From Candidatus Poribacteria bacterium (GTDB lineage: Bacteria; Poribacteria; WGA-4E; PCPOR2b), in contig OZ242036.1 of assembly GCA_965205075.1 (NCBI GenBank), forward strand, positions 5,822,599 to 5,886,598: a stretch of DNA of 64,000 nt, in the 5' to 3' direction. Under the pieces are notes generated by a model. That model was not told where the DNA came from and did not search any database. It worked only from the letters and a program-made list of their open reading frames with translations. Made by a program: the position numbers and the translations under genes. Shown here in pieces: positions 13,343-33,409 of this stretch; within the stretch, counting starts at the first letter, position 1; every line of letters begins with the position of its first letter.

Positions 13343-13387
13343 AAAATAGGATGGATTTCACCTAACATACCATCAAAGGGCCATCGG

Positions 13388-15266: not shown

Positions 15267-15285
15267 GAAAAAATTAAATTTTAGA

Positions 15286-15314
15286 TCGACATATTTTTGC
15301 TTTAGTATTATAAT
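15286..15314 (+). promoter_or_regulatory. Candidate sigma70-type promoter for the divergent LamG-like gene at 15493
   Basis: TCGACA, then a 17-nt spacer, then TATAAT, read directly from the sequence. It would give a ~170-nt leader. Confidence 0.35.
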
Positions 15315-15492
15315 TAATTCCTGATGTAATAATCTGCAGAGATTTGCAATGAAATGAGCAGATTCGCAGCGGTTATAGCGTTCAGCATAACTTCGGTTGG
15401 TTAATGAGATTGGCAAACGAATCGCCATTCGTGCGGACAATGTGTCGGCCAATGCAAATTTCTGGAATAACTACAAACAGGAGGATATTCAA

Positions 15493-16293
15493 ATGCAAAG
15501 GTTGAAGAGATTTCCAATCAGCACCCTGGTTCTTATCTTTTTGATAGGCTTGTTGCCATCCTTGGGATATAGCCAGATCCAATTGGATGACCCGCTCCTC
15601 GTATTCTACTTTCCTCTTAATGAAGGCAAAGGGGATATAATAAAAGACCTCGGTCCCAACCAGCTTGAGGGAGAGCTTGAAGGCGGCCCAGCATGGGTCG
15701 ATTCCGTAGATCCGAAATTTGGCACCTCCCTCTCGTTTATAGATGGAAAAGAGCAATCGGGCTTCGTAGCAGATGTTCCTGCTTTGGATCTCGGCGAATC
15801 GGATACCACCCTCGCTGCTTGGGTTAAGACTGGCAAAGAGGTAGGCCAGGGATTTGTTTATATCAAGTGGGATGGCGGTGGCTGGTATATCAAGCTAAGG
15901 GATAAGAAACTCTACACCCGCTATCACATACCTGCGCCAGTCGGCTTTGGTGCTGAAATTCCTAGCAAAACTGAGATTGCCGATGACGTATGGCATCATG
16001 TCGCCTCAATGCGTACAAACAAAGAGACGGTTCAGCTATTTATTGATGGCAAACTAGACCATAAGGATGATGCGGGTTCAGCACCCGGTTCCGCTAATAC
16101 CCCCGCCAATTTGGAAATTGGTCGGTTTAAAGAGGAGCGTTTCTGGGATGGAGAGTTTGATGAACTTTTCCTGATGAAGAGAAATTTGACAAATGCCGAA
16201 CTTCAACTGTTGATGGACGGACAGTTTTTAGCAGTTGAATCGAAGGGCAAACTTCCTCTCACTTGGGGTAGTCTCAAAGCTGCTAGGGATTAA
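15493..16293 (+). CDS. Secreted LamG/ConA-like domain protein, divergent eighth member
   Basis: Start moved to MQRLKRFPIS (ATG 15493, RBS CAGGAGGA), with a signal peptide. WHHVASMR...LFIDGK and FDELFLMKRNLTNAEL LamG signature. Tail FLAVESKGKLPLTWGSLKAARD. Confidence 0.75.
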   Translation: MQRLKRFPISTLVLIFLIGLLPSLGYSQIQLDDPLLVFYFPLNEGKGDIIKDLGPNQLEGELEGGPAWVDSVDPKFGTSLSFIDGKEQSGFVADVPALDLGESDTTLAAWVKTGKEVGQGFVYIKWDGGGWYIKLRDKKLYTRYHIPAPVGFGAEIPSKTEIADDVWHHVASMRTNKETVQLFIDGKLDHKDDAGSAPGSANTPANLEIGRFKEERFWDGEFDELFLMKRNLTNAELQLLMDGQFLAVESKGKLPLTWGSLKAARD

Positions 16294-18268: not shown

Positions 18269-18385
18269 TAACAGTCATCCACCTTCAGCTTGGAGTGCCA
18301 CCTTCAAGCCAAAGTCTCCATCCCGATTTATCGGGCTGGATTTAGCGATGCACAGCGGAAATGCTAAAATTAGGAGGATTCACAG

Positions 18386-19165
18386 ATGATGCAATCAATT
18401 AGTGACAGTCAATGGGAGCAATTCAAGGAGGAGGGCTATCTCCTGCTCGGTAGAGTGATGGACGATGAAGAACTCACTACCTTGCAGCAGCGCATTGATG
18501 ACATTATGATGGGCAAAGCCAAACTTCCCTACGATCAGATAATGATGCAAATTGATGGTAAGACCAGCGACTACAGTAAGATGGAACCGATGACCAAGGG
18601 GCACAAAGGTCCGTCGTTAAACTATCGTAAGATCACCGAACTGGAGCTTGACCCATTCTTCTTGTCGTATATGCAAAAACCTGCCTTCCGGGATATTTGT
18701 GCTAGAGCCTACGGTCCCTCTACCTCGGTTGCTACCCCGCGTGCAATGTTTATGAATAAGCCGGCCGACACAGGAACTCACCTGCCTTGGCATCAGGATG
18801 TATTTCGGAACCTTGACACACTTTCAGACATTATCATCTGGGCGGCGCTGGATCCCGCGACCCTTGATAGTGGCTGTCTCAGAGTAATTCCCAAATCTCA
18901 TCACCGCATCTATGAAGGAAACTTCCCCACGGAAGAACAGTTGGAAACCCTCTTCGCGGTGGCGGATCCCGTCACCCTTGAATTACAACCGGGCGAGGGG
19001 GTATTGCTGCACGTCAACCTGATTCACACTTCTGCGGTGAATGATACCGGTTTGCCACGGCGGGCATTCAGCGTTGCTTATGTAGATGCTGCGGCTAGGA
19101 CCAACGATGGCCAGCCTCTCCCCACTATTTTTGGCGAAGATGCCTTAACCCCGCAATTCAACTAA
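18386..19165 (+). CDS. Phytanoyl-CoA dioxygenase (PhyH) family Fe(II)/2OG oxygenase
   Basis: 259-aa ORF with AGGAGG RBS. SDSQWEQFKEEGYLLLGRVM N-terminus, LPWHQDVF (HxD) and NLIHTSAVN. Confidence 0.8.
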   Translation: MMQSISDSQWEQFKEEGYLLLGRVMDDEELTTLQQRIDDIMMGKAKLPYDQIMMQIDGKTSDYSKMEPMTKGHKGPSLNYRKITELELDPFFLSYMQKPAFRDICARAYGPSTSVATPRAMFMNKPADTGTHLPWHQDVFRNLDTLSDIIIWAALDPATLDSGCLRVIPKSHHRIYEGNFPTEEQLETLFAVADPVTLELQPGEGVLLHVNLIHTSAVNDTGLPRRAFSVAYVDAAARTNDGQPLPTIFGEDALTPQFN

Positions 19166-19247
19166 CCAAGCAGTGACAGCGTGGGAGCGAGAGGGCGAGA
19201 GGACAAGAAGGAACGAGTAAGCGAAGGGACAGGGTGGCGTGTTTTCG

Positions 19248-19317
19248 ACTCGCTTCCTCACACCCGCGCTTCCTCATAGACTCGTTCACTCGCTCCCTCA
19301 CACCCGTGCTCCCTCAT
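19248..19317. repeat. Two 30-nt pyrimidine-rich direct repeats (period 40 nt) facing a purine-rich complementary arm upstream
   Basis: ACTCGCTTCCTCACACCCGCGCTTCCTCAT (19248-19277) and ACTCGCTCCCTCACACCCGTGCTCCCTCAT (19288-19317), 27/30 identical. The region at about 19185-19235 is GA-rich and contains GGGAGCGAG, which is complementary to CTCGCTCCC. Confidence 0.6.
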
Positions 19318-19413
19318 CTCCTTCACCGCCAAGAATCGCTCACTCTTTGTTGTATTCAAGGATAGCCACACCTCGACGTGCCAGTCAAAACTAATTTCAC
19401 AGGGGAACGTTTA

Positions 19414-20358
19414 ATGCACAAAGATTCTGATGGAAAATCTGCATACAGCATGGGGCTACTTATCATCTTGATTGCTTCACTATGGCTGGGTTGTGGAAAT
19501 GATGAGCCAGAGAGTGAAGCCCCTCCTGACAGAATTGTCGGTAACGACATGGCGGAAATGGTGCTGATTCCTGCTGGGGAGTTTGAAATGGGTGATCCCT
19601 TCAACGAAGGTACTACCTATGAACGCCCCGTTCACACCGTCTTCATTGACGATTTCTATATTGATGTCTACGAAGTGACCAACGTGATGTATGCGAAGTT
19701 TCTTACTGCGATGGGGAAGCATGTGGGGGATACGGGTCATATCTGGTTGGATATTGGCGACGGTGACGAGATGATTGAATTGGTTGGCGAGCAATACCGA
19801 CCGAAGGCAGGATTTGAAGAGTATGCCGTAGTTGAAGTGAGTTGGTACGGTGCAGCGGCGTATGCCCAGTGGGCAGGCAAACGCCTACCGACCGAAGCGG
19901 AGTGGGAGAAAGCCGCCCGTGGTGGGCAGGTCAGGGAACGGTATCCGTGGGGAGATGATGAGCCTGATGGAAGTCAGTGTAACTACGCGGATAAGAATAC
20001 AAGCTATTCTTGGTCAGATCAAACCGCTGACGATGGTTACCAAACAACCGCTCCTGTGGGTCTATATCCACCAAATGACTACGAGTTGTACGACATCGCT
20101 GGAAACGTATGGGAATGGTGCGTAGACGAATTGGATGTAGAGTATTACGAAAATAGTCCAAGAGAGAACCCTGTGTCAGGCGGAACTACACTCTTGATGC
20201 CTGATAACTTCAATAATATTAGGGAACGTCGCATACTTCGCGGCGGTTCGTGGCACAGCACCCCGGAGATCCTCCGTGTGGCGTATCGTTACAGCAGCGA
20301 ACCTGCGGTCACGCTCAGTTACTTTGGCTTTCGTTGCGTAGCCCCTGTTGATCCTTAG
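19414..20358 (+). CDS. Formylglycine-generating-enzyme (SUMF1/FGE-sulfatase) family protein, secreted or lipid-anchored
   Basis: Start moved to MHKDSDGKS. MVLIPAGEFEMGD, YIDVYEVTN, WYGAAAYAQWAGKRLPTEAEWEKAARGG, GNVWEWC, RGGSW and FGFRC are the classic FGE-family blocks. Confidence 0.85.
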   Translation: MHKDSDGKSAYSMGLLIILIASLWLGCGNDEPESEAPPDRIVGNDMAEMVLIPAGEFEMGDPFNEGTTYERPVHTVFIDDFYIDVYEVTNVMYAKFLTAMGKHVGDTGHIWLDIGDGDEMIELVGEQYRPKAGFEEYAVVEVSWYGAAAYAQWAGKRLPTEAEWEKAARGGQVRERYPWGDDEPDGSQCNYADKNTSYSWSDQTADDGYQTTAPVGLYPPNDYELYDIAGNVWEWCVDELDVEYYENSPRENPVSGGTTLLMPDNFNNIRERRILRGGSWHSTPEILRVAYRYSSEPAVTLSYFGFRCVAPVDP

Positions 20359-20468
20359 TCCTATTTTAGCTTCTGAACAATTCGCGTTATGATATTCTCA
20401 TGCCATTATCGAAAACTCCTTTAGGTCTAAAACCCAAGCGTTCTCGGCTTGCGGAAAAAGCTAACCCC

Positions 20469-21608
20469 ATGAAAACCTACAAGTTCAAACTGTATTCCAA
20501 TCACGGCAACCGTGAACTGCATAAGACAATCGAAGGACATGCTTGTGTGTGGAATCACTGTGTTGCCCTCCAGCGTCGATACTACGGTATCTATGGTAAA
20601 TATATCAGCAAGTTTCGGTTGATTAACCATATCTCTAAACTGAAACGGTTGCCTCGTTTTGCCCACTGGAATCGGTTGCCGAGCCAAGCCGTTCAAGACG
20701 TAGCAACCCGCATTGATAAAGGCTATAAGGCGATGTTTGAAGCGAGAGCCAAAGGTAAAGCGTGGGGCAGACCCCGTTTCAAACCACGCGGTAAATATAA
20801 ATCCTTCACACTGCTTCAAGCGGGTTGGAAACTGCTGCCCGGTAACCAGATTCAAATCGGCAAACGCATCTATCACTATTTCAAGTCCCGTGATGTACTT
20901 GGCCCCCCGAAACGTTGCACTATCAAACGGGACGCTGTTGGTGACATCTATATCTGTATCCTAACAGACTATGAGGCACCTGACCTTCATCGAGTCATGA
21001 CGGGTAAAATCGCAGGCTTTGATTTCGGTCTGAAAAGGTATCTCACCGGTCATAACGGACATGACATAGAATCACCGCTGTTTTTCAAACGGAGTATAAA
21101 CGCAGTTAAACGTGCCAATCGTAATCATTCACGGAAACAAAAACAATCAAACAATCGTGAAAGGGCACGGCTTGACTTGGCACGGAAGCACCGCAAGGTA
21201 GCGAACCAACGAGAGGACTTCCACTGGAAACTTGCACACCAACTGACTGATGAATACGACGAGATACGCCTTGAGGACTTAAACCTACAGGGTATGAAAG
21301 CCCTCTGGGGGCGTAAGGTCAGTGATCTGGGGTTCGCCGATTTCGTCAATAAGTTGAAATACATTGCAGCCAAAAAGGGTGTCAAAATAGTTTTCATTGA
21401 TAAGTGGTATCCTTCCAGTAAGACTTGTTCGGCTTGTGGGGCAATCAATGAAGCGTTGGATCTGCGGGATAGAACATGGCAGTGTGATAATTGTGGTGCT
21501 GTCCATGATAGAGACCGCAATGCAGCAATTAACATCTACAGGGTAGGGGCATCTACCCCCGAAGGAGAGGACGTAAGTCCCGATTCGTCAGGCAATCCTT
21601 GTCGATAG
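20469..21608 (+). CDS. tnpB: TnpB (OrfB) RNA-guided endonuclease-type transposase accessory protein
   Basis: Start moved to MKTYKFKLY. RuvC-I is IAGFDFG, RuvC-II is IRLEDLNLQGM, the zinc ribbon is CSACG...CDNCG, and RuvC-III is HDRDRNAAINI. Confidence 0.85.
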   Translation: MKTYKFKLYSNHGNRELHKTIEGHACVWNHCVALQRRYYGIYGKYISKFRLINHISKLKRLPRFAHWNRLPSQAVQDVATRIDKGYKAMFEARAKGKAWGRPRFKPRGKYKSFTLLQAGWKLLPGNQIQIGKRIYHYFKSRDVLGPPKRCTIKRDAVGDIYICILTDYEAPDLHRVMTGKIAGFDFGLKRYLTGHNGHDIESPLFFKRSINAVKRANRNHSRKQKQSNNRERARLDLARKHRKVANQREDFHWKLAHQLTDEYDEIRLEDLNLQGMKALWGRKVSDLGFADFVNKLKYIAAKKGVKIVFIDKWYPSSKTCSACGAINEALDLRDRTWQCDNCGAVHDRDRNAAINIYRVGASTPEGEDVSPDSSGNPCR

Positions 21609-21690
21609 CACAATTCCATTTCTAAACGAACGGGCCTGCTCACGGAACGGAGTGAGAATCCCAATCCTTTAGGTTTGGGAGTATGTCAAT
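21480..21690 (+). ncRNA. Predicted omega/reRNA scaffold overlapping the tnpB 3' end and right end (position inferred by analogy, not seen directly)
   Basis: In characterised TnpB elements the guide RNA scaffold is encoded by the last ~100-150 nt of tnpB plus the right end. Hairpins are present here at 21639-21656 (CTCAC/GTGAG) and 21660-21679. Confidence 0.25.
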
Positions 21691-21708
21691 TGAAGAAAGG
21701 ATCGAATA

Positions 21709-22548
21709 ATGACTGCACCCCATGCGTGGACACCTGCTGAAGGCAGTCTACAAGAAATATTAAAGGAATATCCAAAGCCTCTCAATGCGTTGGTATCGGG
21801 TGAAGTGCCGGCGATTGTTCTCCGCCAAGCTTTCAATCCGGATCACTGTGTGGGTCTCATAGAGAGACTCTATGAACGTGGCTTGGCATACGACCCTCGC
21901 CCAACTGAAAACAACGAAGAAAGTAATAGACCTGTGTACGTTGGTCCCGCTTTCGTTAGGTACAGTCCCGATCCCGACAAACTCTTCGCCTACGCCGCCG
22001 ACACCCACGAACTTTTCAAAACCTTGTTCAACGGGTACGACGATCCAGTGAAGACCTTCTACGAGATGTTGTCGTGTCTGGCACCGGACAAGCGGGTGAT
22101 GACCGCTCGTGAGCCGGACGGCCGTCTTTATGGTCCCGCCGTTTTTCGCGTCTATTATGCCGATCGAGGACACGGACCACACTTTGATTCTGTAGCAAAA
22201 CGACAGAAATTGTTCCATTATCAGGTTTCGCGGTTCCAGCACCAGTTCGCTGGAGTGATGTGCTTCCAGAACTCCGAAAACAGAGGTGAAAATGGAGAGC
22301 CCTTCCTGTACAACTGTCCTTGGACCCCCGCCGTACAGGAATATATCACCGCAGGCACGTTTAGCCAATATGTCGCTGAACAAGGCATCCCCCGGGCTCA
22401 AATTCAACTTGAACCCGGCGACCTTTACTTCTTTTTTTCTGAAAACATCCATGAAGTGCCGCCGGTGGTAGGTGAGGAGCCGCGCATTGTACTCGCTGCC
22501 TTCTTTGGTATGTCCCCGGACGATGAAGAGATTTTTGTCTGGTCGTGA
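21709..22548 (+). CDS. Fe(II)/2OG-dependent oxygenase-like protein (HxD...H)
   Basis: 279-aa ORF. RGHGPHFDS gives an HxD motif and there is a distal ENIHEVPP His. The subfamily was not recognised. Confidence 0.5.
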   Translation: MTAPHAWTPAEGSLQEILKEYPKPLNALVSGEVPAIVLRQAFNPDHCVGLIERLYERGLAYDPRPTENNEESNRPVYVGPAFVRYSPDPDKLFAYAADTHELFKTLFNGYDDPVKTFYEMLSCLAPDKRVMTAREPDGRLYGPAVFRVYYADRGHGPHFDSVAKRQKLFHYQVSRFQHQFAGVMCFQNSENRGENGEPFLYNCPWTPAVQEYITAGTFSQYVAEQGIPRAQIQLEPGDLYFFFSENIHEVPPVVGEEPRIVLAAFFGMSPDDEEIFVWS

Positions 22549-22598
22549 TGTTGCTACCGTTCTCTTGCACCATTATTAGCTACTGAAAGGATAAATCA

Positions 22599-23699
22599 AT
22601 GAAAATTACGAAAATCGAAACATTCCAGATTGAAACTCCGCGCTATTACCAAAAACATCCGGTTGACACAGGCGAAGCGCCATCAGGTCACGTTATCGTG
22701 AAACTCCATGTGGCTGACGGACTCGTAGGGCTAGGGGAAGCCTCAGACAGCAAGGCTGATGATCTGGCCGCGCTAACAAAGCGCTACAACGATTTGCTGG
22801 TTGGACGCGACGCTACCCGGATTACCGAGATTAATGAATTGATGCGGACGCAGGACTTTGGTAGTTCAGTCAGCAACTCACACATAACAGCTGCCATCGA
22901 CATCGCATTGTACGATCTCAATGGCAAAGCGCAGGGTGTGCCAGCCCACAATTTAATGGGCGGAAAAGTGCGAGATAGCATATACTTCTGTTATCCAATC
23001 ATCGGGGTGCACCTAGAGGACGGTTTCGAGCGGAATGCTCATTACCTACAGCGGTTGGTGGATTTGGGACATCATCTGTTTCGTTACTACGTTTCAGGAG
23101 ACGCCGATCGGGACAACCGATTCATCACCGAGATGAAAGATCGCTTCGGAGATAAGATTAAACTCAAAGCCTTCGATTTCTCCGGACGTTTCTCGGATTG
23201 GGAGACCGCTCTGCGTTATGCAGACGTGCTACGTCACCATAACCCGTATAATTTTGAACAACCATCAAACAATTTGCGGGTATGTGCCGACTTCGTCAAA
23301 CGGATGGATGTGCCGGTGAGTCTCCATATCAGCACGTTAGAAGAAGGTTACGAAGCGATTGAGCGCGGGGCGTGCACCGTCCTAAACTTGGCGTGGGTCT
23401 GGTATGGACCGACCTACGTGCGTCGGATGTTCGCGCTAGCAGAAGCCGCGGGCTTGAAGACCTTGCTTTCAACAGATCAGGATTCAACCATAGGCACAGC
23501 CGGCGCGGTGCATCTCGGAGTTTCGGTGCCCAACTTAGATATCCCTGCCGACCCTGCTGGTCCCCTACTCTATACAGTTTCGCCTGCCAAAGAGCGCATC
23601 CGAGCTGAGGCGAGCCACCTGTATCCGCCAGAGGGCCCTGGCTTGGGTGTTGAGTTGGACGACGACAAGATGAGGGAACTAACAGTCGCCTCCGCATAA
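22599..23699 (+). CDS. Mandelate racemase/muconate lactonising enzyme (enolase superfamily) protein
   Basis: 366-aa ORF. It has the MKITKIETFQIE...GLVGLGEA capping-domain start and a barrel-domain layout typical of the family. Confidence 0.75.
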   Translation: MKITKIETFQIETPRYYQKHPVDTGEAPSGHVIVKLHVADGLVGLGEASDSKADDLAALTKRYNDLLVGRDATRITEINELMRTQDFGSSVSNSHITAAIDIALYDLNGKAQGVPAHNLMGGKVRDSIYFCYPIIGVHLEDGFERNAHYLQRLVDLGHHLFRYYVSGDADRDNRFITEMKDRFGDKIKLKAFDFSGRFSDWETALRYADVLRHHNPYNFEQPSNNLRVCADFVKRMDVPVSLHISTLEEGYEAIERGACTVLNLAWVWYGPTYVRRMFALAEAAGLKTLLSTDQDSTIGTAGAVHLGVSVPNLDIPADPAGPLLYTVSPAKERIRAEASHLYPPEGPGLGVELDDDKMRELTVASA

Positions 23700-23812
23700 A
23701 TGACGTATCTATTTTAACGCAAAATCGCCAAAAAAAACTTTTTGATAATTTCTTCTCTGCCTCCTAGCACCCTTGCGTTGAGATTAGATCGGTTTTTCAA
23801 GAGAGAATCATA

Positions 23813-25729
23813 TTGAGTCCGACAGACAGTCGTTTTCTCGCTTCAACTCACCGCCCCCAGCCAGAAATTCGTTGGCGTGTAATCTGGCTGGCAGCAGCTA
23901 TCATCCCTTTTAACAACTACTGGGTCTACGCGATGCTGCGGTGGGCACAGGGCCTCCCGACGACCATGTCGCTTTTCTTCAATGTGATTTTTATCTTTGC
24001 GATTCTGCTCGCGTTGAATTATGGAATTTCCCTATATTCGCCGCGCTTGGCATTGACCCAAGGCGAATTGCTGACGTTCTACGCCATGCTTTCCGTCGCC
24101 ACTGCAATCGCCGGCGCAGATTTCTTCGCCGTAATCATCACACATATTGCCGTTGGCGGCTGGATGGCAACTGAGGAGAACGAATGGGCGACATTGTTTC
24201 ACCGTTACTTCCCCGATTGGCTGGCATTGACCGACAAAAATAGTCTCAGAACCTATTTTGTCGGTGAGTCGGCCCTTTACCTTGACGAGCATCTGCGGTT
24301 ATGGTGGAGGCCTGTCCTTTCATGGTCTGGGTTTATCGTTGTCCTCGTTTGCACGGCGTTTTGCATCAACGTCGTTATGCGGAAACAGTGGATTGAGATA
24401 GAACGACTCAGCTACCCAATTATCGAACTTCCGCAGCAGATGACAACCAAGGGCTTCTTTCGGAATCGGTTGATGTGGGCCGGAGCGATCCTCGCTGGCG
24501 GTATGGATATCGTCAACGCGCTGCATTTCTTGTATCCATCCATCCCAGGACTCGGTGGCGATTTCTTCGACCTGCAACCCTATTTTACCACGAAACCGTG
24601 GAACGCTATCGGTTGGACGCCTGTCACGCTCTTCCCCTTTGCTGTAGGGATGGCATATTTTATGCCACTCGATCTCTCCTTCACCTTCTGGTTTTTCTAT
24701 ATCTTTTGGAAATTTGAGTTGATCATGGGGAGTATTCTTGGGTTTCAACAGATCCCCAACTTTCCGTATATCTTTGAGCAATCATTTGGCGTCTGTGTCG
24801 GTGTGCTGATTCTGGTGTTTTGGAGTGCACGGCATCATTTACGAAACGTGCTGATAGGCGCATGGCGCGGCGAAAAAGCGTCTGAGTCTAACGAACCGAT
24901 TTCTTATCGTACGGCGGTCCTCGGGGTAATTATCGGTTTCCTGTTGTTAATCGGTTTTTGGGTAGTGGCGGGGATGTCGCTCTGGGTCGCTGTCCTGGTT
25001 TTCATTATCCATTTTACGACCGTAACCGTTACGGCTCGCATCCGCGCCGAACTCGGACCACCTCTCCATGATCTCCGCAGGATGGGACCTGATGTGCTAA
25101 TTCCACAGATGTTTGGCATGCGGCGAGTAGGTCCTAGAAACCTCAGCCTGTTCGCGCTCGTATTTCCTTTTAATCGTGCCTATCGGGGCAATGCTATGCC
25201 GCCGCAACTGGAAGGACTGAAACTCGCCGAGCGAGCAGGCATCTCGACGCGGCGCGTCGGATTCGCGATACTGATTGCTGTTTTCATCAGTCCATTACCT
25301 CTGTTCTGGGGCGGATTACAACTCGGCTACGAATCCGGTGCGGTGGCGTTTTGGGGCGGCGGTGTCTTTCGGCGAACCCAAAGTTGGCTCACCAATCCAA
25401 TGCCTGTGGATGTCCTAGGAATCTTGGCAATGCTCTTCGGCACGCTCTTCACCTTCGCTCTCACCGCCTTGCGTCATCGTTTCGTTTGGTGGCCCCTCTA
25501 TCCCGTTGGGTACGGCATCACAGGCACATGGGCGGTCAACTTTTTTTGGTCTTCGGTACTCGTTGCTTGGGTGATTAAGTTGTGCATCCTCCGCTTTGGA
25601 GGCATAAGAACGTTTCGCCGCCTAGCGCCGTTCTTTCTAGGAATGCTATTCGGTGAGTTTCTGCTCGGAGGTGTATGGGCACTGATTGGTGTGATTGTCC
25701 AGATGCCAATGTATCGGTTTATTTGGTGA
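23813..25729 (+). CDS. Uncharacterised polytopic membrane protein, paralogue 3 of 5
   Basis: 638-aa ORF with an uncertain TTG start. Motifs TEENEW, WIEIERLSYP, KPWNAIGW, PLDLSFTFWFFY, RIRAELGPPLHD, AMPPQLEGLKLAER, WWPLYPVGY and PFFLGMLFGE. Confidence 0.8.
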   Translation: MSPTDSRFLASTHRPQPEIRWRVIWLAAAIIPFNNYWVYAMLRWAQGLPTTMSLFFNVIFIFAILLALNYGISLYSPRLALTQGELLTFYAMLSVATAIAGADFFAVIITHIAVGGWMATEENEWATLFHRYFPDWLALTDKNSLRTYFVGESALYLDEHLRLWWRPVLSWSGFIVVLVCTAFCINVVMRKQWIEIERLSYPIIELPQQMTTKGFFRNRLMWAGAILAGGMDIVNALHFLYPSIPGLGGDFFDLQPYFTTKPWNAIGWTPVTLFPFAVGMAYFMPLDLSFTFWFFYIFWKFELIMGSILGFQQIPNFPYIFEQSFGVCVGVLILVFWSARHHLRNVLIGAWRGEKASESNEPISYRTAVLGVIIGFLLLIGFWVVAGMSLWVAVLVFIIHFTTVTVTARIRAELGPPLHDLRRMGPDVLIPQMFGMRRVGPRNLSLFALVFPFNRAYRGNAMPPQLEGLKLAERAGISTRRVGFAILIAVFISPLPLFWGGLQLGYESGAVAFWGGGVFRRTQSWLTNPMPVDVLGILAMLFGTLFTFALTALRHRFVWWPLYPVGYGITGTWAVNFFWSSVLVAWVIKLCILRFGGIRTFRRLAPFFLGMLFGEFLLGGVWALIGVIVQMPMYRFIW

Positions 25730-25886
25730 GGGCTAAAATCTCCATTAACCCCATTCTCGTCCGATATCATCTCCCATAGGATGTTCAACTTGCAATTTAT
25801 AATGAGAGTAGAACCGTATGTCACTTTCATAAAGTCCATATTGAATTTAACGTTGTTTTCATCACCTCCATTGGAGGCTTAATACA

Positions 25887-27806
25887 GTGCCTGAAACGAC
25901 CTTCCAAAACGGTCTGACGCTCAAATCCTTTTTTATTACACTGTGTCTCATTCCTATCAATATTTACTTCGTTGTTCAACTTGAAGTTGTTCGTTATACA
26001 TTTCCCACGCTCGTCCATCCACTATCGAATGTCATTTTTATTCTATTTTGGCTACTTCTGATTGGAGCCATTCTCAAGAAAATCTCCCCCAAGCTTGGAA
26101 TTAGCTCACCAGAACTTCTGACAATCTATGTCATGTTGGGCGTTGTATCGGCTCTCTGCTCGGCTGACACGATGCAAATCTTAATCACCATTTTGGGGCA
26201 TCCCTTCCGCTTTGCAACACCTGAAAATCAATGGCGTGAACTGTTCTGGAAGGAATTGCCCGCTTGGCTCACCGTCCAAGATGAAAAGGCACTAACCCCC
26301 TATTACGAAGGGGGATCTAGCTTCTATATAAGACGGCATCTGTATGCGTGGCTCCGTCCCGCGCTGGCATACATTGTATTTATCTTTGTGCTGATGTTTG
26401 TGATGCTGTGCATCAATACGCTGTTACGGATTCAGTGGACGGAGCGGGAACGGTTGACTTATCCAATTATTCAACTTCCACTGGAAATGACGGACACCAG
26501 TAATAGGTTCTTCAAAAATAAACTGATGTGGCTTGGCTTCAGCATCGCTGCGTTGATTAGTATAATGAATTTGCTCAATTCGATTTACCCCGCTGTTCCC
26601 TATATTCCCGTCAAGCGTCAGAATTTACACCAATATTTCACTGGCCGCCCTTGGAATGCGATGGGCTCCTTCCGGGTTTCGTTTTATCCCTTTGTCATCG
26701 GCATTGGGTTCCTCATACCACTAGATCTCCTCTTTTCATGCTGGATGTTTTACGGAGTCTATAAAATTGAACTAATGGTCGGTAACATAATGGGGTGGCG
26801 CAATCTGCCGCGTTTTCCCTATTTCAACGAACAGGCATTGGGCGTCTACGTTGCACTGCTCGTATTTGTGCTGTGGGTCGGCAGAGTCCATTTCAAGGGG
26901 TTGGTGCGCCATCTGCTAGGTTCATCTTCACTCGATGATTCCCGTGAACCGATGCCATATCGCTTGGCAGTCGCAGGTATATTAATTGGATTGATATTCT
27001 TGATGGCATTTTCCTACAGAGCGGGGATGTCCTTGTGGGTTACTCCGATCTTTTTCGCGATTTACTTTCTAGTCGCGATAATGATTGCGAGACTCCGTGC
27101 GGAATTGGGTTTTTTAGTACACGATTTACACTACATTGACCCGCACAACACGCTCGTCACCGTATTTGGAACACGCCGCCTCGGATCGAGCACATTGACC
27201 GTCTTTTCGTTATATCAGTTTTTCAATCGTGCCTATCGGGCTCACCCGATGCCACCACAACTGGAAGGCTTGAAAATCGCTGAAAGACGAAATATCAATC
27301 CACGTCACATAGCTGCAGCGATTCTACTCGCCACCTTAATTGGATCGGTGAGCGTTTTTTGGGTATTGTTAGATAACTACTACCGACACGGCGCAGAAAC
27401 CGGGTACTATGGACCATGGGCACTGGGGTACGGACGAGCCATCTATGGTCAACTCGAAACGTGGCTGAACTACCCCCGAGAGACAGATGTTCCAGCTATC
27501 GCTTTCATGGGAGGCGGACTCGGTTTCGCAGCACTACTCATGTTCCTAAGAACGCGCTTTCTGTGGTGGCCCCTCCATCCACTCGGCTATGCCATGGCAA
27601 ATAGCTGGGGGATGTTCAATCTGTGGGCTTGTCTCTTTGTTGCATGGATAGCGAAAGCAATCATCCTACACCACGGCGGACTTAGGGCATACCGACAAGC
27701 GATCCCCTTCTTTTTGGGGCTTGCCCTAGGAGACTATATGTTCGGCAGCCTGTGGAGTATTATTAGTATTGCAACCAACAGCACTCTGTATCAATTTTTT
27801 CCCTAG
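25887..27806 (+). CDS. Uncharacterised polytopic membrane protein, paralogue 4 of 5
   Basis: 639-aa ORF with a GTG start 9 nt after GGAGG. It has the same motif set and aligns by eye along its full length with paralogue 5. Confidence 0.85.
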   Translation: MPETTFQNGLTLKSFFITLCLIPINIYFVVQLEVVRYTFPTLVHPLSNVIFILFWLLLIGAILKKISPKLGISSPELLTIYVMLGVVSALCSADTMQILITILGHPFRFATPENQWRELFWKELPAWLTVQDEKALTPYYEGGSSFYIRRHLYAWLRPALAYIVFIFVLMFVMLCINTLLRIQWTERERLTYPIIQLPLEMTDTSNRFFKNKLMWLGFSIAALISIMNLLNSIYPAVPYIPVKRQNLHQYFTGRPWNAMGSFRVSFYPFVIGIGFLIPLDLLFSCWMFYGVYKIELMVGNIMGWRNLPRFPYFNEQALGVYVALLVFVLWVGRVHFKGLVRHLLGSSSLDDSREPMPYRLAVAGILIGLIFLMAFSYRAGMSLWVTPIFFAIYFLVAIMIARLRAELGFLVHDLHYIDPHNTLVTVFGTRRLGSSTLTVFSLYQFFNRAYRAHPMPPQLEGLKIAERRNINPRHIAAAILLATLIGSVSVFWVLLDNYYRHGAETGYYGPWALGYGRAIYGQLETWLNYPRETDVPAIAFMGGGLGFAALLMFLRTRFLWWPLHPLGYAMANSWGMFNLWACLFVAWIAKAIILHHGGLRAYRQAIPFFLGLALGDYMFGSLWSIISIATNSTLYQFFP

Positions 27807-27893
27807 CGGGCAGAGCTATTCATGTAAAGCTATTTTAGGACTTGACATTATTTAGGGCGGCCATCTTTTACACATCACACATTACATATTTCT

Positions 27894-29876
27894 ATGAAAA
27901 GTATATTGACAGAACCTCAAAATACCCGTTTTACCTTAACAGAGAATACCCCTGTGCCGTTCCAGAGCGGTTTAACACTTAAATCATTCGTGATCGCTTC
28001 CCTGCTGATTCCGGTCACGGTTGCTTGGATCATTCAGCTTGAAGTGGTTCGCCATACCTTTCCAACGCTTGTTCATCCGCTCTCGCATGTCATTTTCACG
28101 ATTTTCTGGCTTGTTCTGATCGGGTGGATATTCGGTAAAATCTCCCCCAAGCTCGGTCTTTCTCAACAGGAACTCCTCACGATCTACTTCATGTTGTGCA
28201 TTGTTTCCACTCTTTGTTCGTATGACTGTATGGAGATCTTCGTACCGATCATGGCGCATGCGTTCCGGTTTGCTAGTCCTGAAAACGAATGGCGGCAGCT
28301 GTTTTGGCGACAACTGCCGGAGTGGCTCACAGTTCACGACGAAAAAGCGGTAACGGCTCTTTATGAAGGAGGTTCAAGTCTTTACACCGAGAGGTATTTA
28401 AAGGCGTGGCTTGGTCCGGCGGTGGCGTGGATGGCGTTTATCTTTGCGTGGATGGTTGTGATGCTGTGTATTAACGCGCTGTTGCGGGTTCAGTGGATTG
28501 AGCGTGAGCGGTTGACCTATCCCCTGACCCAACTTCCGTTGGAGATGACCAATCCGAGGTTAGGCTTCTTCAGAAACAGGTTGATGTGGCTCGGTTTCGG
28601 CATTGCTGCCCTGATCAGTATTGTGAATCTGCTTCATTCCATCAACCCTATTATCCCCTATATCCCTGTCAAACGCCAGAGCATCAGTCACTATTTTACC
28701 ACCCGTCCTTGGAATGGGATGGGTGGTGTGCAGGTCGCTTTCTATCCTTTCGCGATTGGGATCGGCTTTCTTATACCGCTGGATCTCCTATTTTCATGCT
28801 GGGCGTTTTTCTGGATCTACAAAATTGAACTGATGATTGGCAGCATCATGGGTTGGCGAGGTCTACCACGCTTCCCTTATCCCGCCGAACAGGCTTTCGG
28901 TGTATATATGGGGCTGCTAGGGTTCGTCCTCTGGACTGGCAGATCGCATATCAAAGGGATAGTGCGTCACCTGTTCAGTTCCCGTGCTTCCCCATCACAA
29001 CTAGATGATTCCGGCGAACCGATGCCATATCGCCTTGCTGTTGCGGGCATCATACTCGGCCTGATTTTTCTAATGGCATTTTCCTATAAGGCAGGTATGT
29101 CGCTGTGGGTGATTCCAATTTTCTTCGCAATCTATTTCTTACTATCGGTAATGGTTACGCGACTCAGGGCGGAGCTGGGGTTCCTAGTACACGGTTTGAA
29201 ATTCATCAGTCCACATAACATGATTGTTGCCGGGGTTGGAACATGGCGACTTAATACCAGCACACTGACTGTCTTTTCGCTGTACATGTTTTTCAATCGC
29301 GCCAACTGGGCAAATCCAATGCCGGAACAGCTGGAAGCCTTGAAAATCTCGGAAAGGCGGAATATTAACCCACGCCATACAGCCGCTGCGATTCTGCTTG
29401 CGACAGTTATTGGATCGGCGGTAACTTTTTGGCTATTGTTGGATATCTACTATCGACACGGCGCGGAATCTGGATACTTTGATCCCGCCGTATTGGGATT
29501 TGGGCGTGATGTCTATGTGCAGCTTGAAAACTGGCTGAACTCTCCTAAAGAGCCAGATCGTCCAGCACTCGCCTTTGTGGGGGGTGGGGTTGTGTTTACT
29601 GTGTTGCTGATGTTTTTGCGGGCGCGCTTCCTGTGGTGGCCGCTCCATCCACTCGGTTATGCCACAGCACAGAGTTGGGGGATGGCGAACCTTTGGTGCT
29701 GTCTCTTTGTCGCTTGGGCGTGCAAGGCTATCATCCTACGCTATAGCGGATTCAACGCATATCGACGCGCAATCCCATTCTTTCTCGGACTCGCCTTAGG
29801 GGACTATATTTTGGGTAGCCTCTGGAGTATTTTGGACATTCCAACCACTATCTCTTTATACCTATTTTTCCCTTAA
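27894..29876 (+). CDS. Uncharacterised polytopic membrane protein, paralogue 5 of 5
   Basis: 660-aa ORF with the same motif set. It is the closest relative of paralogue 4. Confidence 0.85.
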   Translation: MKSILTEPQNTRFTLTENTPVPFQSGLTLKSFVIASLLIPVTVAWIIQLEVVRHTFPTLVHPLSHVIFTIFWLVLIGWIFGKISPKLGLSQQELLTIYFMLCIVSTLCSYDCMEIFVPIMAHAFRFASPENEWRQLFWRQLPEWLTVHDEKAVTALYEGGSSLYTERYLKAWLGPAVAWMAFIFAWMVVMLCINALLRVQWIERERLTYPLTQLPLEMTNPRLGFFRNRLMWLGFGIAALISIVNLLHSINPIIPYIPVKRQSISHYFTTRPWNGMGGVQVAFYPFAIGIGFLIPLDLLFSCWAFFWIYKIELMIGSIMGWRGLPRFPYPAEQAFGVYMGLLGFVLWTGRSHIKGIVRHLFSSRASPSQLDDSGEPMPYRLAVAGIILGLIFLMAFSYKAGMSLWVIPIFFAIYFLLSVMVTRLRAELGFLVHGLKFISPHNMIVAGVGTWRLNTSTLTVFSLYMFFNRANWANPMPEQLEALKISERRNINPRHTAAAILLATVIGSAVTFWLLLDIYYRHGAESGYFDPAVLGFGRDVYVQLENWLNSPKEPDRPALAFVGGGVVFTVLLMFLRARFLWWPLHPLGYATAQSWGMANLWCCLFVAWACKAIILRYSGFNAYRRAIPFFLGLALGDYILGSLWSILDIPTTISLYLFFP

Positions 29877-29912
29877 TAGACGAATGTGCATTGTTTTGAG
29901 TCAAAGCGTGGG

Positions 29913-30818
29913 TCAATCAAGTCGCTTCAGATACTGTTTCACAATGTCTATTCCCACAAGATCACTATACACTGCCTGTATTTGATCCGTAACGGGTCCC
30001 GGTACACTGCCATCGCCGATGGTTGAACCGTTGACAGAGGACACGGAACAGAGGCAGAAACTGGTAGAGGTCACAAAAGCCTCATCGGCTGTATAGACAT
30101 CATAAAGATCGATGTCCGCCTCTTGCACCTTGATATTCAGACCTTGGGCGAGTTCGATGACAGTCTCACGGCTTATACCTGCTAAGACATACTGTTCTTT
30201 TGGTGTAACGACCACCCCATTCTTGACAATGAAGAAGTTGCTTCCAAGACCCTCGGCTATATTACCGTTGATGTCCAGCAAGATAGAGAAAGCGTCCGGG
30301 TTCTGCGCCTTCACCTCCTGATCGGCAAGTAAAAGGTTGATGTAATTGTGCACCTTGACCCTAGGACTCATGCACTCAGGCGGCGTCCGTCTTATCGAAG
30401 GGATGACGACACTCAGACCGTCACGGTAATACCGTGCCCTCGCATCGAACGGTAAAGGGTTGCACTCGATGATTACCGTTGGCTTATATTCGCCCCCGCC
30501 TGTGGGAACACCTCTACTAATTCGCTGTATCACCCAATAGTCATCGTCCGGTCCCAACAGCGGTTGATTTGCCGCTAGCACCTGCATGGTCAACTCTGCC
30601 ATCTGTTGCTGGGAAATCCCCGGATCTAGGCGCATATATTTCAGCGAATCGTACAACCGATCCAGATGCTCATTCAGTTTGAATATCACCCCGCCGAAAG
30701 TACGGGTCGCATCAAAGACCGCATCCCCAGTCACAAATCCTTGGTCCCGAAAGGATACCTTTCCTTCGCTCTCTGGAACTATCTCTCCATTGATGTATAC
30801 CATACGTTCTTGAGCCAT
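29913..30818 (-). CDS. Class IV aminotransferase (branched-chain/D-amino-acid aminotransferase family)
   Basis: 301-aa ORF. MVYINGEIVPESEGKVSFRDQGFVTGDAVFDATRTF...HLDRLYDSL is the typical class IV N-terminus. Confidence 0.8.
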   Translation of the reverse strand: MAQERMVYINGEIVPESEGKVSFRDQGFVTGDAVFDATRTFGGVIFKLNEHLDRLYDSLKYMRLDPGISQQQMAELTMQVLAANQPLLGPDDDYWVIQRISRGVPTGGGEYKPTVIIECNPLPFDARARYYRDGLSVVIPSIRRTPPECMSPRVKVHNYINLLLADQEVKAQNPDAFSILLDINGNIAEGLGSNFFIVKNGVVVTPKEQYVLAGISRETVIELAQGLNIKVQEADIDLYDVYTADEAFVTSTSFCLCSVSSVNGSTIGDGSVPGPVTDQIQAVYSDLVGIDIVKQYLKRLD

Positions 30819-31003: not shown

Positions 31004-31969
31004 TCAGGACTTCCAGTCAAATATCACACCCAGCAGAGCCTCTGGCGTGTTCTTCATCGTCTCATAGATGTGCGGTGCTTCTGTTATCGAAACCCGATGC
31101 GTCACCAGTGGTGCGATTCGGATGGCACCCAATCTGACAAAATGTAGAAGAATCTGTAGGTCTTCAAGTGTGAAATGAGATGAAGATTCAATTGAAGCCC
31201 TTTTGGAATGAAGCATGCTTTGGTGGAACTTCGTCTCGCCCCGACCAGCTAGGGCACCGATGGCTCCATATAAGGCAAGCAGGTCATTCCTATGAATATC
31301 CTCAAATAACGTCGGTGCCCCACAGGCGTCAACGATGCGGTCATAGGGAGCTCCATGCTTCAGTGCCTCGTCTGCAGATGGCTCTGAGATATTTATCACC
31401 CGGTGTGCGCCGAGCGTTCTGGCGATCTCAAGCCGGCGGGGATTGACATCTGTCACGGTCACATAGGCACCGAGGGCGCGCGAGGCCTGTGCCACAGATT
31501 GACCAATAAGCCCCAAGCCTGCCACCCACACATTATGGGAGGCCCCAACACGGATGCGCCTGGAGTGCCGCATTCCTACGCCGGCTACGCCAAACAGGGC
31601 GCAGAATTCACGCTCGACATCGTCGGGAAGTTTGATACAAAGTCGAGCTCTTTCGTTGGTGGTTTCAACGTTTACCAAATGCCATCCACGGTGACCCCCG
31701 TGAACGCCGAGAAAGATGACATCACCCACCGAAAACGCTTCGACCCGATGCCCTATACCGTCGACAACCCCGACGTGCTGATAGCCGGCACGAGTGGGAT
31801 AATTTGTTCTGCCAAAGTCATTCATCAGCGCATGCCGCTCGGTACCATTGGTCACGCCTGAATAGAGAGTGCGAATCCGTATCTCTGTTGGGTCTGGGGC
31901 TGGTGGCGGGCCCAGATCAAAAAATGCCATTTCACCCTGTACCGGAAACTCTATACCAATATTCTGCAT
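31004..31969 (-). CDS. Zinc-type alcohol dehydrogenase-like (MDR family) oxidoreductase
   Basis: 321-aa ORF with a GroES-like N-terminal domain and a VAGLGLIGQ Rossmann motif. Confidence 0.7.
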   Translation of the reverse strand: MQNIGIEFPVQGEMAFFDLGPPPAPDPTEIRIRTLYSGVTNGTERHALMNDFGRTNYPTRAGYQHVGVVDGIGHRVEAFSVGDVIFLGVHGGHRGWHLVNVETTNERARLCIKLPDDVEREFCALFGVAGVGMRHSRRIRVGASHNVWVAGLGLIGQSVAQASRALGAYVTVTDVNPRRLEIARTLGAHRVINISEPSADEALKHGAPYDRIVDACGAPTLFEDIHRNDLLALYGAIGALAGRGETKFHQSMLHSKRASIESSSHFTLEDLQILLHFVRLGAIRIAPLVTHRVSITEAPHIYETMKNTPEALLGVIFDWKS

Positions 31970-32119: not shown

Positions 32120-32911
32120 CTATCGCTCCGGGAGCAGCGCCGTCAGTCCACCATCAATAACGAAATTAGCACCGGTGATATTGGTCGCCCTTTCGCTGCA
32201 CAGAAACAGTGCTAGTTCTGCAATTTCGCGCGGTGATGTAAAACGTTGGGTTGGGTATTGTGAACGCCAGACCTCCCACTGTTCGTCTTTGGTACGGCTA
32301 AACAGTTGCGCCGCTTGGTCAACCGCTGCCTCCAATAGTGGCGTCTCCACCGATCCAGGTGAAATAGCGTTGGCGCGGATGCCGTATTTTGCCAAATCTA
32401 TGGCTTCGCTCCGGGTGAGCGATAGCAGTCCGGCTTTGGTCACTGAATAGACCATCGCATCTTCCTGGTTTGCCAAGCCCGATACCGAAGCGATGTTGAG
32501 GATAGCACCGCCCTGTTGTTTAATATACGGCACTGAATACTTTGCCATCAGAAAAGCGGACGTGAGATTAACGGCGACGGTCTTATCCCACATTGACAAC
32601 GACAGTTCTTCGACATCTCCCGGACAATCGACAATGCCGACAGTATTAATCAGGCAGTCAATCGTCCCGAAATTTTGGGCGACCGTTTCACAAAAACTGC
32701 GTACCGAGGCTTCATCTGCGACATCAATAGTTTCGCTGTGAACGGTTGCACCTGATTCTCGGCATTTTTCAGTGGTCTGTGAGAGTTCATCTTGACGGAT
32801 GTCGCAAAGACCTAACGTTGCCCCGGCATCCGCAAACTTTTCAGCGATTACCTCTCCAATACCGCCACACGCTCCAGTGATGATGACCACCTTGTTCTTG
32901 TAGTTTTCCAA
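32120..32911 (-). CDS. SDR-family oxidoreductase
   Basis: VVIITGACGGIG (TGxxxGxG), NTVG and a YSVTK catalytic Y-x3-K. Confidence 0.85.
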   Translation of the reverse strand: MENYKNKVVIITGACGGIGEVIAEKFADAGATLGLCDIRQDELSQTTEKCRESGATVHSETIDVADEASVRSFCETVAQNFGTIDCLINTVGIVDCPGDVEELSLSMWDKTVAVNLTSAFLMAKYSVPYIKQQGGAILNIASVSGLANQEDAMVYSVTKAGLLSLTRSEAIDLAKYGIRANAISPGSVETPLLEAAVDQAAQLFSRTKDEQWEVWRSQYPTQRFTSPREIAELALFLCSERATNITGANFVIDGGLTALLPER

Positions 32912-32932: not shown

Positions 32933-33409
32933 TTAGCTGTCCACTTCATCGAAATTCTCGTGCCAATAAATGGCTTCAATTGCGCGATACTTTCCTTCTG
33001 TTTCAAAGTTCATGCTGTGAGCCTTGGGCACACGCTGATCTGTTCGATTGCTGATTGCTTCCGCGTCGCCGATGTAAAACCCTGCGTGTCTACGGATACC
33101 GCCGTCAGGAAATTCTGTCGGTTCCCAGACGAGGACACTGCCAACTTTCGGTTCTTCTATCTTTTTCCAACCTGACCGTTGGAGATTCGCCTCTAGCCCC
33201 CTGACGGTCGTGTGCAGGTCATCTATCAGTTTACAGTGGAAAAGCACCGATGAAACGAAGTAGGCACAAGAAAGTATTCCATCTCGTAGGATATCTGTCT
33301 CTTCCCCGTCAACGGAAGCGTAAAGATTTCGGAATAGATCCGAACCAACGCTGCGGTGAACCATTAGCATATAATTCTTAAAACGGTTTAGCTCAACTTT
33401 TTGCGCCAA
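32933..33409 (-). CDS. Hypothetical protein with NlpC/P60-like (papain-fold Cys...His) pattern
   Basis: SCAYFVSSVLF (Cys), then GSVLVWEP...RHAGFYIGDAEAISN (His), in NlpC/P60-like order and spacing. No signal peptide. Confidence 0.4.
   Translation of the reverse strand: MAQKVELNRFKNYMLMVHRSVGSDLFRNLYASVDGEETDILRDGILSCAYFVSSVLFHCKLIDDLHTTVRGLEANLQRSGWKKIEEPKVGSVLVWEPTEFPDGGIRRHAGFYIGDAEAISNRTDQRVPKAHSMNFETEGKYRAIEAIYWHENFDEVDS

Follow-up and report, generated by a model that had tools for sequence, protein, structure and literature searches.

A locus with tandem DUF6785/DUF6784 membrane proteins and variable upstream enzyme genes in Candidatus Poribacteria: a possible uptake-and-catabolism cluster

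What kind of system is formed by an oxygenase gene, an enolase-superfamily gene and three consecutive copies of one membrane protein, all read in the same direction? This question is raised by a five-gene array in Candidatus Poribacteria, which are dominant and uncultivated sponge symbionts. The array lies in a stretch of 64,000 nucleotides (hereafter the window) of contig OZ242036.1 (assembly GCA_965205075.1, positions 5,822,599 to 5,886,598 of the forward strand). It consists of gene 1, for an Fe(II)/2-oxoglutarate (2OG) oxygenase, gene 2, for an enolase-superfamily enzyme, and the membrane paralogues M3, M4 and M5; two further paralogues, M1 and M2, are encoded elsewhere in the window. The reading favoured here, at slightly better than even chances, is that of a nutrient uptake-and-catabolism cluster which imports and oxidises its substrates. 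The membrane paralogues are very probably transporters, whereas a functional coupling of the enzymes to them is rated a little short of even. The cluster is most likely an ordinary, evolutionarily fluid catabolic/uptake locus and not a new kind of system. What is new is the fold-level placement of the wholly unannotated DUF6785/DUF6784 family in the Yellow-Stripe/OPT class, and its multi-copy presence beside the unexplained expansion of PhyH oxygenases in Poribacteria.

As the initial annotation had proposed, the five genes are intact open reading frames (ORFs) on one strand (Table 1), separated by short gaps (50, 113, 157 and 87 nucleotides from gene 1 through M5). Three tandem paralogues of about 640 amino acids together with two enzyme genes of the same strand cannot be a chance product of sequence. 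All five genes are under strong purifying selection, with ratios of nonsynonymous to synonymous substitution (dN/dS) of 0.03-0.09 against their orthologues in L007, the nearest of the six related Poribacteria genomes (about 87-93% nucleotide identity) compared in this study. The value is 0.09 for gene 1 and 0.035 for M3, and the range over all genes is 0.03-0.12. These low values argue that every gene of the array is functional.

Table 1. Features of the window, the five array genes first
Feature	Positions	Strand	Length, domains and remarks
Gene 1, WelO5-family Fe(II)/2OG oxygenase	21709-22548	+	279 amino acids; Pfam PF22814
Gene 2, enolase-superfamily enzyme (2OQY type)	22599-23699	+	366 amino acids; MR_MLE_N + MR_MLE_C
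M3, DUF6785+DUF6784 polytopic membrane protein	23813-25729	+	638 amino acids; Pfam
M4, DUF6785+DUF6784 paralogue	25887-27806	+	639 amino acids; Pfam; conserved M4-M5 core
M5, DUF6785+DUF6784 paralogue	27894-29876	+	660 amino acids; Pfam; conserved M4-M5 core
PhyH oxygenase + M1 pair	512-1387 + 1437-3401	+	Pfam
PhyH oxygenase + M2 pair	3714-4571 + 4781-6748	+	Pfam
Laminin_G_3 (concanavalin-like) paralogues, seven in tandem	8581-16293	six -, one +	roughly 270-300 amino acids
PhyH oxygenase upstream of the array, same direction	18386-19165	+	Pfam; synteny in L007, L091
FGE-sulfatase-domain protein	19378-20358	+	Pfam; N-terminal hydrophobic segment ending in Cys; synteny in L007, L091
TnpB-only IS200/IS605-type element	20408-21688	+	OrfB_IS605 + Cas12f1-like_TNB domains
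Class IV aminotransferase, convergent to M5	29913-30818	-	Pfam/NCBIfam
Zn-dependent dehydrogenase, convergent to M5	31004-31969	-	Pfam/NCBIfam
Short-chain dehydrogenase/reductase (SDR), convergent to M5	32120-32911	-	Pfam/NCBIfam
ORF between SDR and methyltransferase	32933-33409	-	158 amino acids; kept in L001, L089, L091, L092
ORF with Hint and LAGLIDADG homing-endonuclease matches, C-terminal Radical_SAM	39628-41400	-	590 amino acids
DDE_Tnp_1 transposase gene	50922-52067	-	

Family and predicted fold of the membrane paralogues

M3, M4 and M5 match DUF6785 (PF20581) with 480-547 bits (cutoff 25; E 1e-144 to 1e-164), followed in the same chain by DUF6784 (PF20580) with 111-123 bits (cutoff 26.4), and M1 and M2 likewise match both families above the gathering scores. 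M4 and M5 are 70.2% identical across 638 amino acids, which bears out the earlier impression, gained by eye, that they align along almost their whole length and represent the latest duplication. M3 was correctly taken to be more distant (36.5-39.1% identity to M4 and M5), and every pair among M1 to M5 other than M4-M5 shows 36-39%. The duplication is older than the split from relatives of about 88-93% nucleotide identity, because these carry both copies. At the protein level, the M4 orthologues of L001, L007, L089, L091 and L092 are 88-97% identical to M4, and an M5 orthologue (92-97%) is present in every related genome examined.

The family is large: counted as representatives at 50% identity, 7,439 clusters fall within E<=0.001 and 2,686 within E<=1e-30. 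Candidatus Poribacteria account for its nearest named homologues and for almost all of the 79 related loci, and the range of the family reaches at least Armatimonadota. All database names met for its members are "hypothetical protein" or "DUF6785 family protein", NCBIfam holds no model for the family, and no mention of DUF6785 was found in the literature searched. Across the alignments, the motifs RxRAELG, QLE, PENEW and WWPxHP and one Lys are invariant; such conserved charges (Arg, Glu, Lys and His) would be in keeping with the ion-coupled transport of anionic substrates.

The fold of M3 was predicted with AlphaFold2 from an alignment of 109 sequences, built after gathering the M3 clade. This model reaches a predicted local distance difference test (pLDDT) score of 89.9 and a predicted TM-score (pTM) of 0.91; with the five window paralogues alone, the pLDDT was 44.8. 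In a Foldseek search of the PDB, the only significant matches to the M3 model were 7wst_A and 7wsr_A, both from cryo-EM structures (entries 7WST and 7WSR) of barley Yellow Stripe 1 (HvYS1), a proton symporter of the OPT/YSL family. The match to 7wst_A has an E value of 5.7e-8 and a probability of 1.00, with a query TM-score (TMq) of 0.67, a target TM-score (TMt) of 0.71 and 671 aligned columns, while the remaining PDB matches have TM-scores of ~0.1. The predicted fold of M3 superposes on HvYS1 over its full length; both are all-helical polytopic membrane proteins, of ~640 and ~680 amino acids, respectively. There are also differences. Sequence identity to M3 is ~12%, and HvYS1, which has a dimerising C-terminal strand and a disulfide, comes from a plant whereas the DUF6785 family is prokaryotic (Poribacteria, Armatimonadota). 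Moreover, the OPT/YSL proteins (TC 2.A.67) form the Pfam family PF03169, and the window proteins belong to the separate families DUF6785 and DUF6784.

The model thus suggests that DUF6785/DUF6784 is a remote relative of OPT/YSL at the level of the fold and not a member of PF03169, where it is not filed because the profile match fails for the window proteins and for 75 diverse family representatives. These same failures weigh against the placement itself: M1 to M4 do not match PF03169 even at E<=10, nor does M5 at E<=0.01, nor any of the 75 representatives at E<=0.01. The family profiles A1 and A4 have no match among PDB sequences at E<=10 either, and the support for OPT homology at the level of sequence is weak. 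A shortened M4 orthologue, P0017, does reach the PF03169 gathering score (26.0 vs 25.8 bits), with the match at corresponding positions (356-498 vs 356-494), and precomputed PF03169 matches are recorded on five orthologues. A comparison of the N-terminal with the C-terminal half of alignment A3 by hhalign found no internal repeat (probability 0.8%), an outcome to be expected where inverted repeats are ancient, and a tblastn search with P0013 for an annotated OPT gene on plasmids returned no match.

OPT/YSL proteins use proton coupling to import peptides, glutathione, folates and metal chelates derived from amino acids; Yellow Stripe 1 has been proposed to work by an elevator-type mechanism. 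Given the predicted fold, the most fitting reading of the membrane paralogues is as secondary importers. Those OPT/YSL proteins that have been characterised import their substrates (PMC9691689, PMC12687453), and the YSL clade is the portion of the OPT family that reaches into bacteria (PMC12687453). The placement adds a bacterial family to a fold so far represented by one plant protein, and gives it a testable function, namely the proton-coupled import of peptide-like or amino-acid-derived carboxylates.

The two enzyme genes

The protein encoded by gene 1 matches the Pfam family WelO5 (PF22814) with 84.2 bits (cutoff 27) over profile positions 9-277 of 277. The HxD...H oxygenase recognised in the initial annotation is confirmed by a complete triad (H158-F-D160 and H248), together with R259. 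Its best solved relatives are WelO5 and Wi-WelO15 (E about 3e-9). WelO5, AmbO5 and Wi-WelO15 are carrier-protein-independent Fe/2OG halogenases of the same Pfam family, which gene 1 matches from end to end; both of their His ligands and their 2OG-binding Arg align with residues of gene 1. On the other hand, identity to these enzymes is roughly 20%, they are cyanobacterial whereas the host of gene 1 is not, and no indole-alkaloid biosynthesis genes lie near gene 1.

Fe/2OG halogenases have Gly or Ala in place of the carboxylate of the triad, which opens a coordination site for the halide. The 'HFD' of gene 1 aligns with 'HVG' of the wild-type chains and with 'HVD' of entry 5IQU, so that Asp160 stands at the position of Gly166 of WelO5, as in that engineered variant. 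Gene 1 is predicted to encode an enzyme of the hydroxylase type, because the triad Asp is kept whereas halogenases lack this ligand; its assignment as a halogenase was rejected, the motif being HxD and not HxG.

Gene 2 encodes the mandelate-racemase/muconate-lactonising-type enzyme that had been recognised, with the capping domain MR_MLE_N (PF02746, 54 bits) and the barrel domain MR_MLE_C (PF13378, 90 bits). The best PDB match is 2OQY/3HPF (E 6.6e-46; the next match is at 7e-26), with 32% identity to 2OQY. This protein of Oceanobacillus iheyensis is the galactarate dehydratase of distinct regiochemistry which Rakus et al. 2009 reportedly described, together with the structural roles of its signature residues, and corresponds to the SFLD 'galactarate dehydratase 2' subgroup. 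The two enzymes have an unusual signature in common. Arg-x-Tyr (R162-x-Y164 on strand 2) replaces Lys-x-Lys, the metal ligands at the ends of strands 3, 4 and 5 are Asp, Glu and His (D193, E220, H243), which align with those of 2OQY, and strand 6 carries an Asn (N263).

Classifying the enzyme by its catalytic residues, as had been recommended, therefore led to a 2OQY-type signature and a carboxylate substrate, and not as far as galactarate dehydratase. This function was not adopted, because the Tyr90 loop is missing from gene 2 and no matching pathway context was found. HMMER aligns the 2OQY/3HPF segment 'yy(y/f)e', with Tyr90 of 2OQY (mutated to Phe in 3HPF), with a four-residue gap in gene 2; the stretch around the gap, FGSSVSNSHITAAID, contains no Tyr. 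None of the NCBIfam equivalog models reaches its cutoff for gene 2, the talarate/galactarate dehydratase model scoring 44.5 bits against a cutoff of 500. No gene of the glucarate/galactarate pathway (5-dehydro-4-deoxyglucarate dehydratase, aldehyde dehydrogenase) was found among the window genes scanned. Enolase-superfamily enzymes act on carboxylates and, to our knowledge, their chemistry always takes place alpha to a carboxylate; from its residues, gene 2 is predicted to encode a dehydratase or epimerase acting on such a substrate.

A metagenome scan for relatives of gene 2 returned two near-identical contigs only. The single more distant relative found, 62% identical, lies in a marine metagenome of high GC content (L088, 5960-12671). 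Its neighbours there are a PhyH oxygenase gene and genes for a DegT aminotransferase, an N-acyltransferase (NAT_N/GNAT_C) and an ABC-2 transporter. Even without DUF6785, an enzyme of the gene 2 type is again found paired with PhyH.

A mosaic around M4 and M5

In the six related genomes, M4 and M5 are preceded by different sets of genes. L007 and L091 have the order of the window: PhyH, FGE-like, WelO5-like, enolase-superfamily, M3, M4 and M5. In L089/L090, an Opp/Dpp-type ATP-binding cassette (ABC) importer is followed by a PhyH of 279 amino acids, M3, M4 and M5. L001 has an enolase-superfamily gene, the 279-residue PhyH, M4 and M5, with remnants of the WelO5-like 3' end and the M3 5' end, and L092 has only the 279-residue PhyH, M4 and M5. 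The window has no copy of this PhyH, whose representatives in L001, L089 and L092 are orthologues (87-90% identity). In each of the six genomes, some 2OG oxygenase gene precedes the array by one or two genes, although the identity of the oxygenase changes. M4-M5 and, after it, the convergent block with the aminotransferase and the SDR make up the stable core; the latter two genes occur at every related locus, whereas L089 and L091 have no Zn-dehydrogenase.

Traces of this turnover are preserved in L001. Positions 6961-7300 hold about the last third of the WelO5-like gene, aligned from window position 22206 onward at ~90% identity, and positions 9731-9904 hold what is left of the M3 5' end (~180 nucleotides, 76% identity); both are deletion scars. 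M1 is also missing from L001 and L092, where the PhyH upstream of it is retained, as is the PhyH-M2 pair. In L089/L090, the ABC importer (positions 1-8817: an SBP_bac_5 protein, two permeases and two oligo_HPY ATPases) takes the place of the PhyH-FGE-WelO5-enolase segment and lies directly upstream of the 279-residue PhyH and of M3-M4-M5; in L090 one of its ATPase genes is split into two ORFs. This importer hints at peptide-like or opine-like substrates. The pair of WelO5-like and enolase-superfamily genes is not conserved, and the cluster is evolutionarily labile.

The initial annotation had regarded the array as a third, larger version of the module. In the sense of a duplicated unit, this view is not supported. 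The WelO5-like protein has no significant BLAST similarity to the PhyH proteins paired with M1 and M2, these PhyH proteins share 21% identity, and the transporters, at 36-39%, are paralogues of ancient origin. The duplicated-module reading was rejected, the oxygenases not being homologous copies of one another. What can be kept of the module idea is the retention of M4-M5 and of an upstream 2OG oxygenase in all six relatives, while the upstream enzyme genes vary and relatives of M3 occur elsewhere. The first 23 kb of the window contain four Fe/2OG oxygenase genes (three PhyH, with mutual identities <=25%, and one WelO5-like), which is consistent with the published abundance of PhyH in Poribacteria.

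Mobile elements have added to the variation. The TnpB element of the window is inserted 21 nucleotides upstream of the start codon of gene 1 and interrupts the cluster. Direct comparison of the junction sequences shows that L007 is devoid of window positions about 20410-21685, and without the element the FGE-sulfatase gene ends about 60 nucleotides before gene 1. The true start of TnpB is probably near 20469 (MKTYKFKLY...). L091 has a TnpB gene (L091 4315-5466) that is 68% identical and lies between the WelO5-like and enolase-superfamily genes; the two are independent insertions into the same small cluster, and the element of the window is not part of the functional cluster. At its end, a hairpin-forming stretch, CCCAATCC...TTTGGG, may be part of the element's guide RNA or its right end.

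Terminator-like hairpins are missing from all four gaps of the array, but the counts of the promoter and terminator scan lie at or below the shuffled expectation, which makes the scan uninformative on operon structure. The common strand, the short gaps and the lack of hairpins are compatible with co-transcription of the five genes. An internal promoter is plausible as well, because M4-M5 occur in L092 without M3 and without the WelO5-like and enolase-superfamily genes.

Beyond these close relatives, gene neighbourhoods were examined in 79 other DUF6785 loci, about 70 of which contain a single DUF6785 gene. Enolase-superfamily genes account for 5.1% of adjacent positions vs 1.5% further away (p=0.008), although the loci are partly orthologous, which makes such p-values optimistic. 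They adjoin, or sit one gene from, different DUF6785 genes and belong to at least four active-site subtypes; those other than gene 2 have KxK, KxD or KxH in place of its RxY. In L081 (152-7818; NZCC01000060.1, a metagenome-assembled genome labelled Chromatiales), an enolase-superfamily gene with a KxH motif, 25% identical to gene 2, accompanies three tandem DUF6785 genes which are 73-76% identical to one another and 34-42% identical to M1-M5. This arrangement is independent of that of the window, and the Chromatiales label may be due to wrong binning or to gene transfer. In L086 (7807-10920), an M3 relative (48% identity) and the operon of a ZnuA/ABC-3 metal ABC transporter are divergent neighbours; no other context found hints at the uptake of metal chelates.

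Proposed function, rival explanations and remaining genes

According to the reading of an uptake-and-catabolism cluster, M3, M4 and M5 would carry out the ion-coupled import of carboxylate-bearing, peptide-like or amino-acid-derived solutes. Such cargo is suggested because it is that of known OPT/YSL proteins, because enolase-superfamily genes recurrently adjoin the family and because L089 has an Opp-type peptide ABC system upstream. Each paralogue would act on its own, as a monomer or homodimer, on a related but distinct carboxylate-bearing solute, as relatives can do without M3 and the family is mostly encoded by single genes; specificity or affinity probably differs from one paralogue to the next. 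Inside the cell, the gene 1 enzyme would hydroxylate the imported compound and the gene 2 enzyme would then abstract the proton alpha to the carboxylate, leading to elimination or epimerisation. Chemically, a beta-hydroxylation with subsequent alpha,beta-dehydration, yielding a 2-keto or enamine product, would make a coherent sequence, and the product could pass to the class IV aminotransferase and the dehydrogenases encoded convergently. All of these may be downstream catabolic enzymes; neither the aminotransferase nor the Zn-dehydrogenase nor the SDR reaches an NCBIfam equivalog cutoff. In evolutionary terms the locus would be a mosaic in which M4-M5 stay and the upstream enzymes are swapped among close relatives, one of them always a 2OG oxygenase. 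What the data show are the identities of the genes, their active-site motifs, the fold match, purifying selection and the variation among genomes, whereas the direction and proton coupling of transport, the class of substrate, co-transcription and the sequence and coupling of the enzymatic steps are inferred.

The proposed logic, import of a scavenged small polar compound followed by a first oxidation by a 2OG oxygenase encoded beside the transporter, is generally known from TauABC-TauD-type pairs; there the transporter is of the ABC type, whereas here it would be an OPT-like secondary carrier, and the oxygenase families differ. The recurring local pairing of oxygenase and importer suggests a route to the substrates of the PhyH proteins, whose abundance in Poribacteria is largely unexplained. 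PhnY-like PhyH genes have been described in Poribacteria and a PhnY/PhnZ route for 2-aminoethylphosphonate has been proposed for them (PMC3909097), and a PhyH protein of Poribacteria complemented a 2'-O-methyl-nucleoside demethylase assay (PMC12709175). A broader proposal can be formulated, possible if on the unlikely side. DUF6785 proteins, interchangeable Fe/2OG oxygenases (those of the PhyH expansion and WelO5-like enzymes) and enolase-superfamily enzymes would form swappable 'import-and-oxidise' cassettes for sponge-derived carboxylate or peptide-like metabolites, the family being a hitherto unrecognised prokaryotic branch of OPT/YSL that has grown to many copies per genome in Poribacteria and the tandem arrays reflecting substrate diversification.

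A number of observations weigh against the uptake-and-catabolism reading, and most of them speak for its strongest rival, namely that the genes are neighbours without a common pathway, in a hot spot of expanded paralogues (PhyH, DUF6785, Laminin_G_3) and insertion sequences, with oxygenase, enolase-superfamily enzyme and transporters serving unrelated substrates. No domain family is more abundant in Poribacteria than PhyH, which has >1.9% of genes (PMC3909097) and makes up 2.8% of the ORFs in the loci examined. The membrane family-2OG enzyme link drawn in the initial annotation holds at this locus, in six of six relatives, and does not extend to the family, where 2OG oxygenases are 3.2% of the genes adjoining DUF6785 vs 2.5% further away (p=0.58). 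After de-replication, the immediate neighbours are heterogeneous and no partner family dominates. Relatives of M3 (48-71% identity) and of M4 (65-71%) are found in unrelated contexts, with PGA_cap, Tat genes, a ferredoxin-reductase-like gene or ZnuABC, and no DUF6785 gene lies near the 62%-identical gene 2 homologue of L088. Homologous clusters without the enzyme genes, which had been named beforehand as telling against a cluster, do occur: the WelO5-like and enolase-superfamily genes are both missing in L089/L090 and L092, and L001 keeps no intact WelO5-like gene, only its 3' remnant, and no M3. Gene content therefore varies even at 87-93% identity, with deletion scars, two TnpB insertions and a patchy Laminin_G_3 array. 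Promoter-like sites number 9 vs 13.3 in shuffled sequence, as judged by a sigma-70 consensus that may not be that of Poribacteria. No riboswitch or regulator tying the array genes together was found in the window, where Rfam gave nothing at gathering thresholds (nor at E<=1 over 18000-30200) and no tRNA gene was seen. Co-location alone is nevertheless judged unlikely. Despite the turnover, all six variants keep a 2OG oxygenase gene just upstream of the array, PhyH lies directly upstream of two of the five DUF6785 genes of the window (P about 0.007 at the background rate), the adjacent enolase-superfamily enrichment extends over several subtypes, and the array keeps one strand and gaps of 50-157 nucleotides without terminator-like sites.

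The remaining alternatives concern the membrane proteins themselves. The initial annotation had described the membrane component as multiplied or heteromeric; three paralogues make it multiplied, while a single hetero-oligomeric carrier of M3, M4 and M5, or at least of M4 and M5, is improbable. The M4-M5 tandem kept in all six related genomes and the three tandem copies of L081 would agree with such a carrier, and the purification of HvYS1, a transporter of Fe(III)-phytosiderophore, as a dimer implies that an oligomer interface exists in this fold; yet each HvYS1 protomer has its own substrate site and a functional monomer was not excluded by the authors (PMC9691689). Most loci contain one DUF6785 gene, L001 and L092 have no M3, whose relatives at other loci occur singly, and the M4 relatives at 65-71% identity are single-copy at their loci. 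The cargo of HvYS1, the only structural relative, brings up the uptake of metallophores, in which a metal-chelator complex would be imported in the manner of YS1/YSL and the neighbouring enzymes would recycle or modify the chelator. The bacterial reach of the YSL clade (PMC12687453), the M3 relative beside ZnuABC and the SBP_bac_5 protein upstream in L089 point in this direction. The SBP_bac_5 family also includes nickel and opine-type metallophore receptors. However, the ZnuABC adjacency is a single case, and nothing resembling a nicotianamine synthase or opine dehydrogenase was found among the window genes, nor did the window show a metal regulator or a metal-responsive element. The many paralogues per genome are better explained by the diversity of organic nutrients than by metal uptake, and this alternative too has a small chance of being correct. 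Least probable is biosynthesis and export, in which the oxygenase and the enolase-superfamily enzyme would tailor a small molecule secreted by the membrane proteins. WelO5-family enzymes are known in natural-product tailoring, and the L088 context of the gene 2 homologue resembles a tailoring-and-export set, but no core biosynthetic genes for nonribosomal peptides (NRPS), polyketides (PKS), terpenes or ribosomally synthesised and post-translationally modified peptides (RiPP) are present in the window, the characterised OPT/YSL members are importers, and the DUF6785 family occurs in many housekeeping-like and catabolic contexts.

Some other genes of the window deserve mention. The ORF of 158 amino acids that follows the SDR gene has an orthologue in every related genome, the orthologues being without a recorded Pfam match. 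The tandem Laminin_G_3 paralogues are absent from the syntenic regions of L001 and L092, and Laminin_G_3 genes recur near DUF6785 in other Poribacteria loci, such as L043 and L006. The ORF of 590 amino acids looks like a radical-SAM protein with an intein, judging from its domain matches, and the DDE_Tnp_1 transposase gene represents a second type of mobile element in the window.

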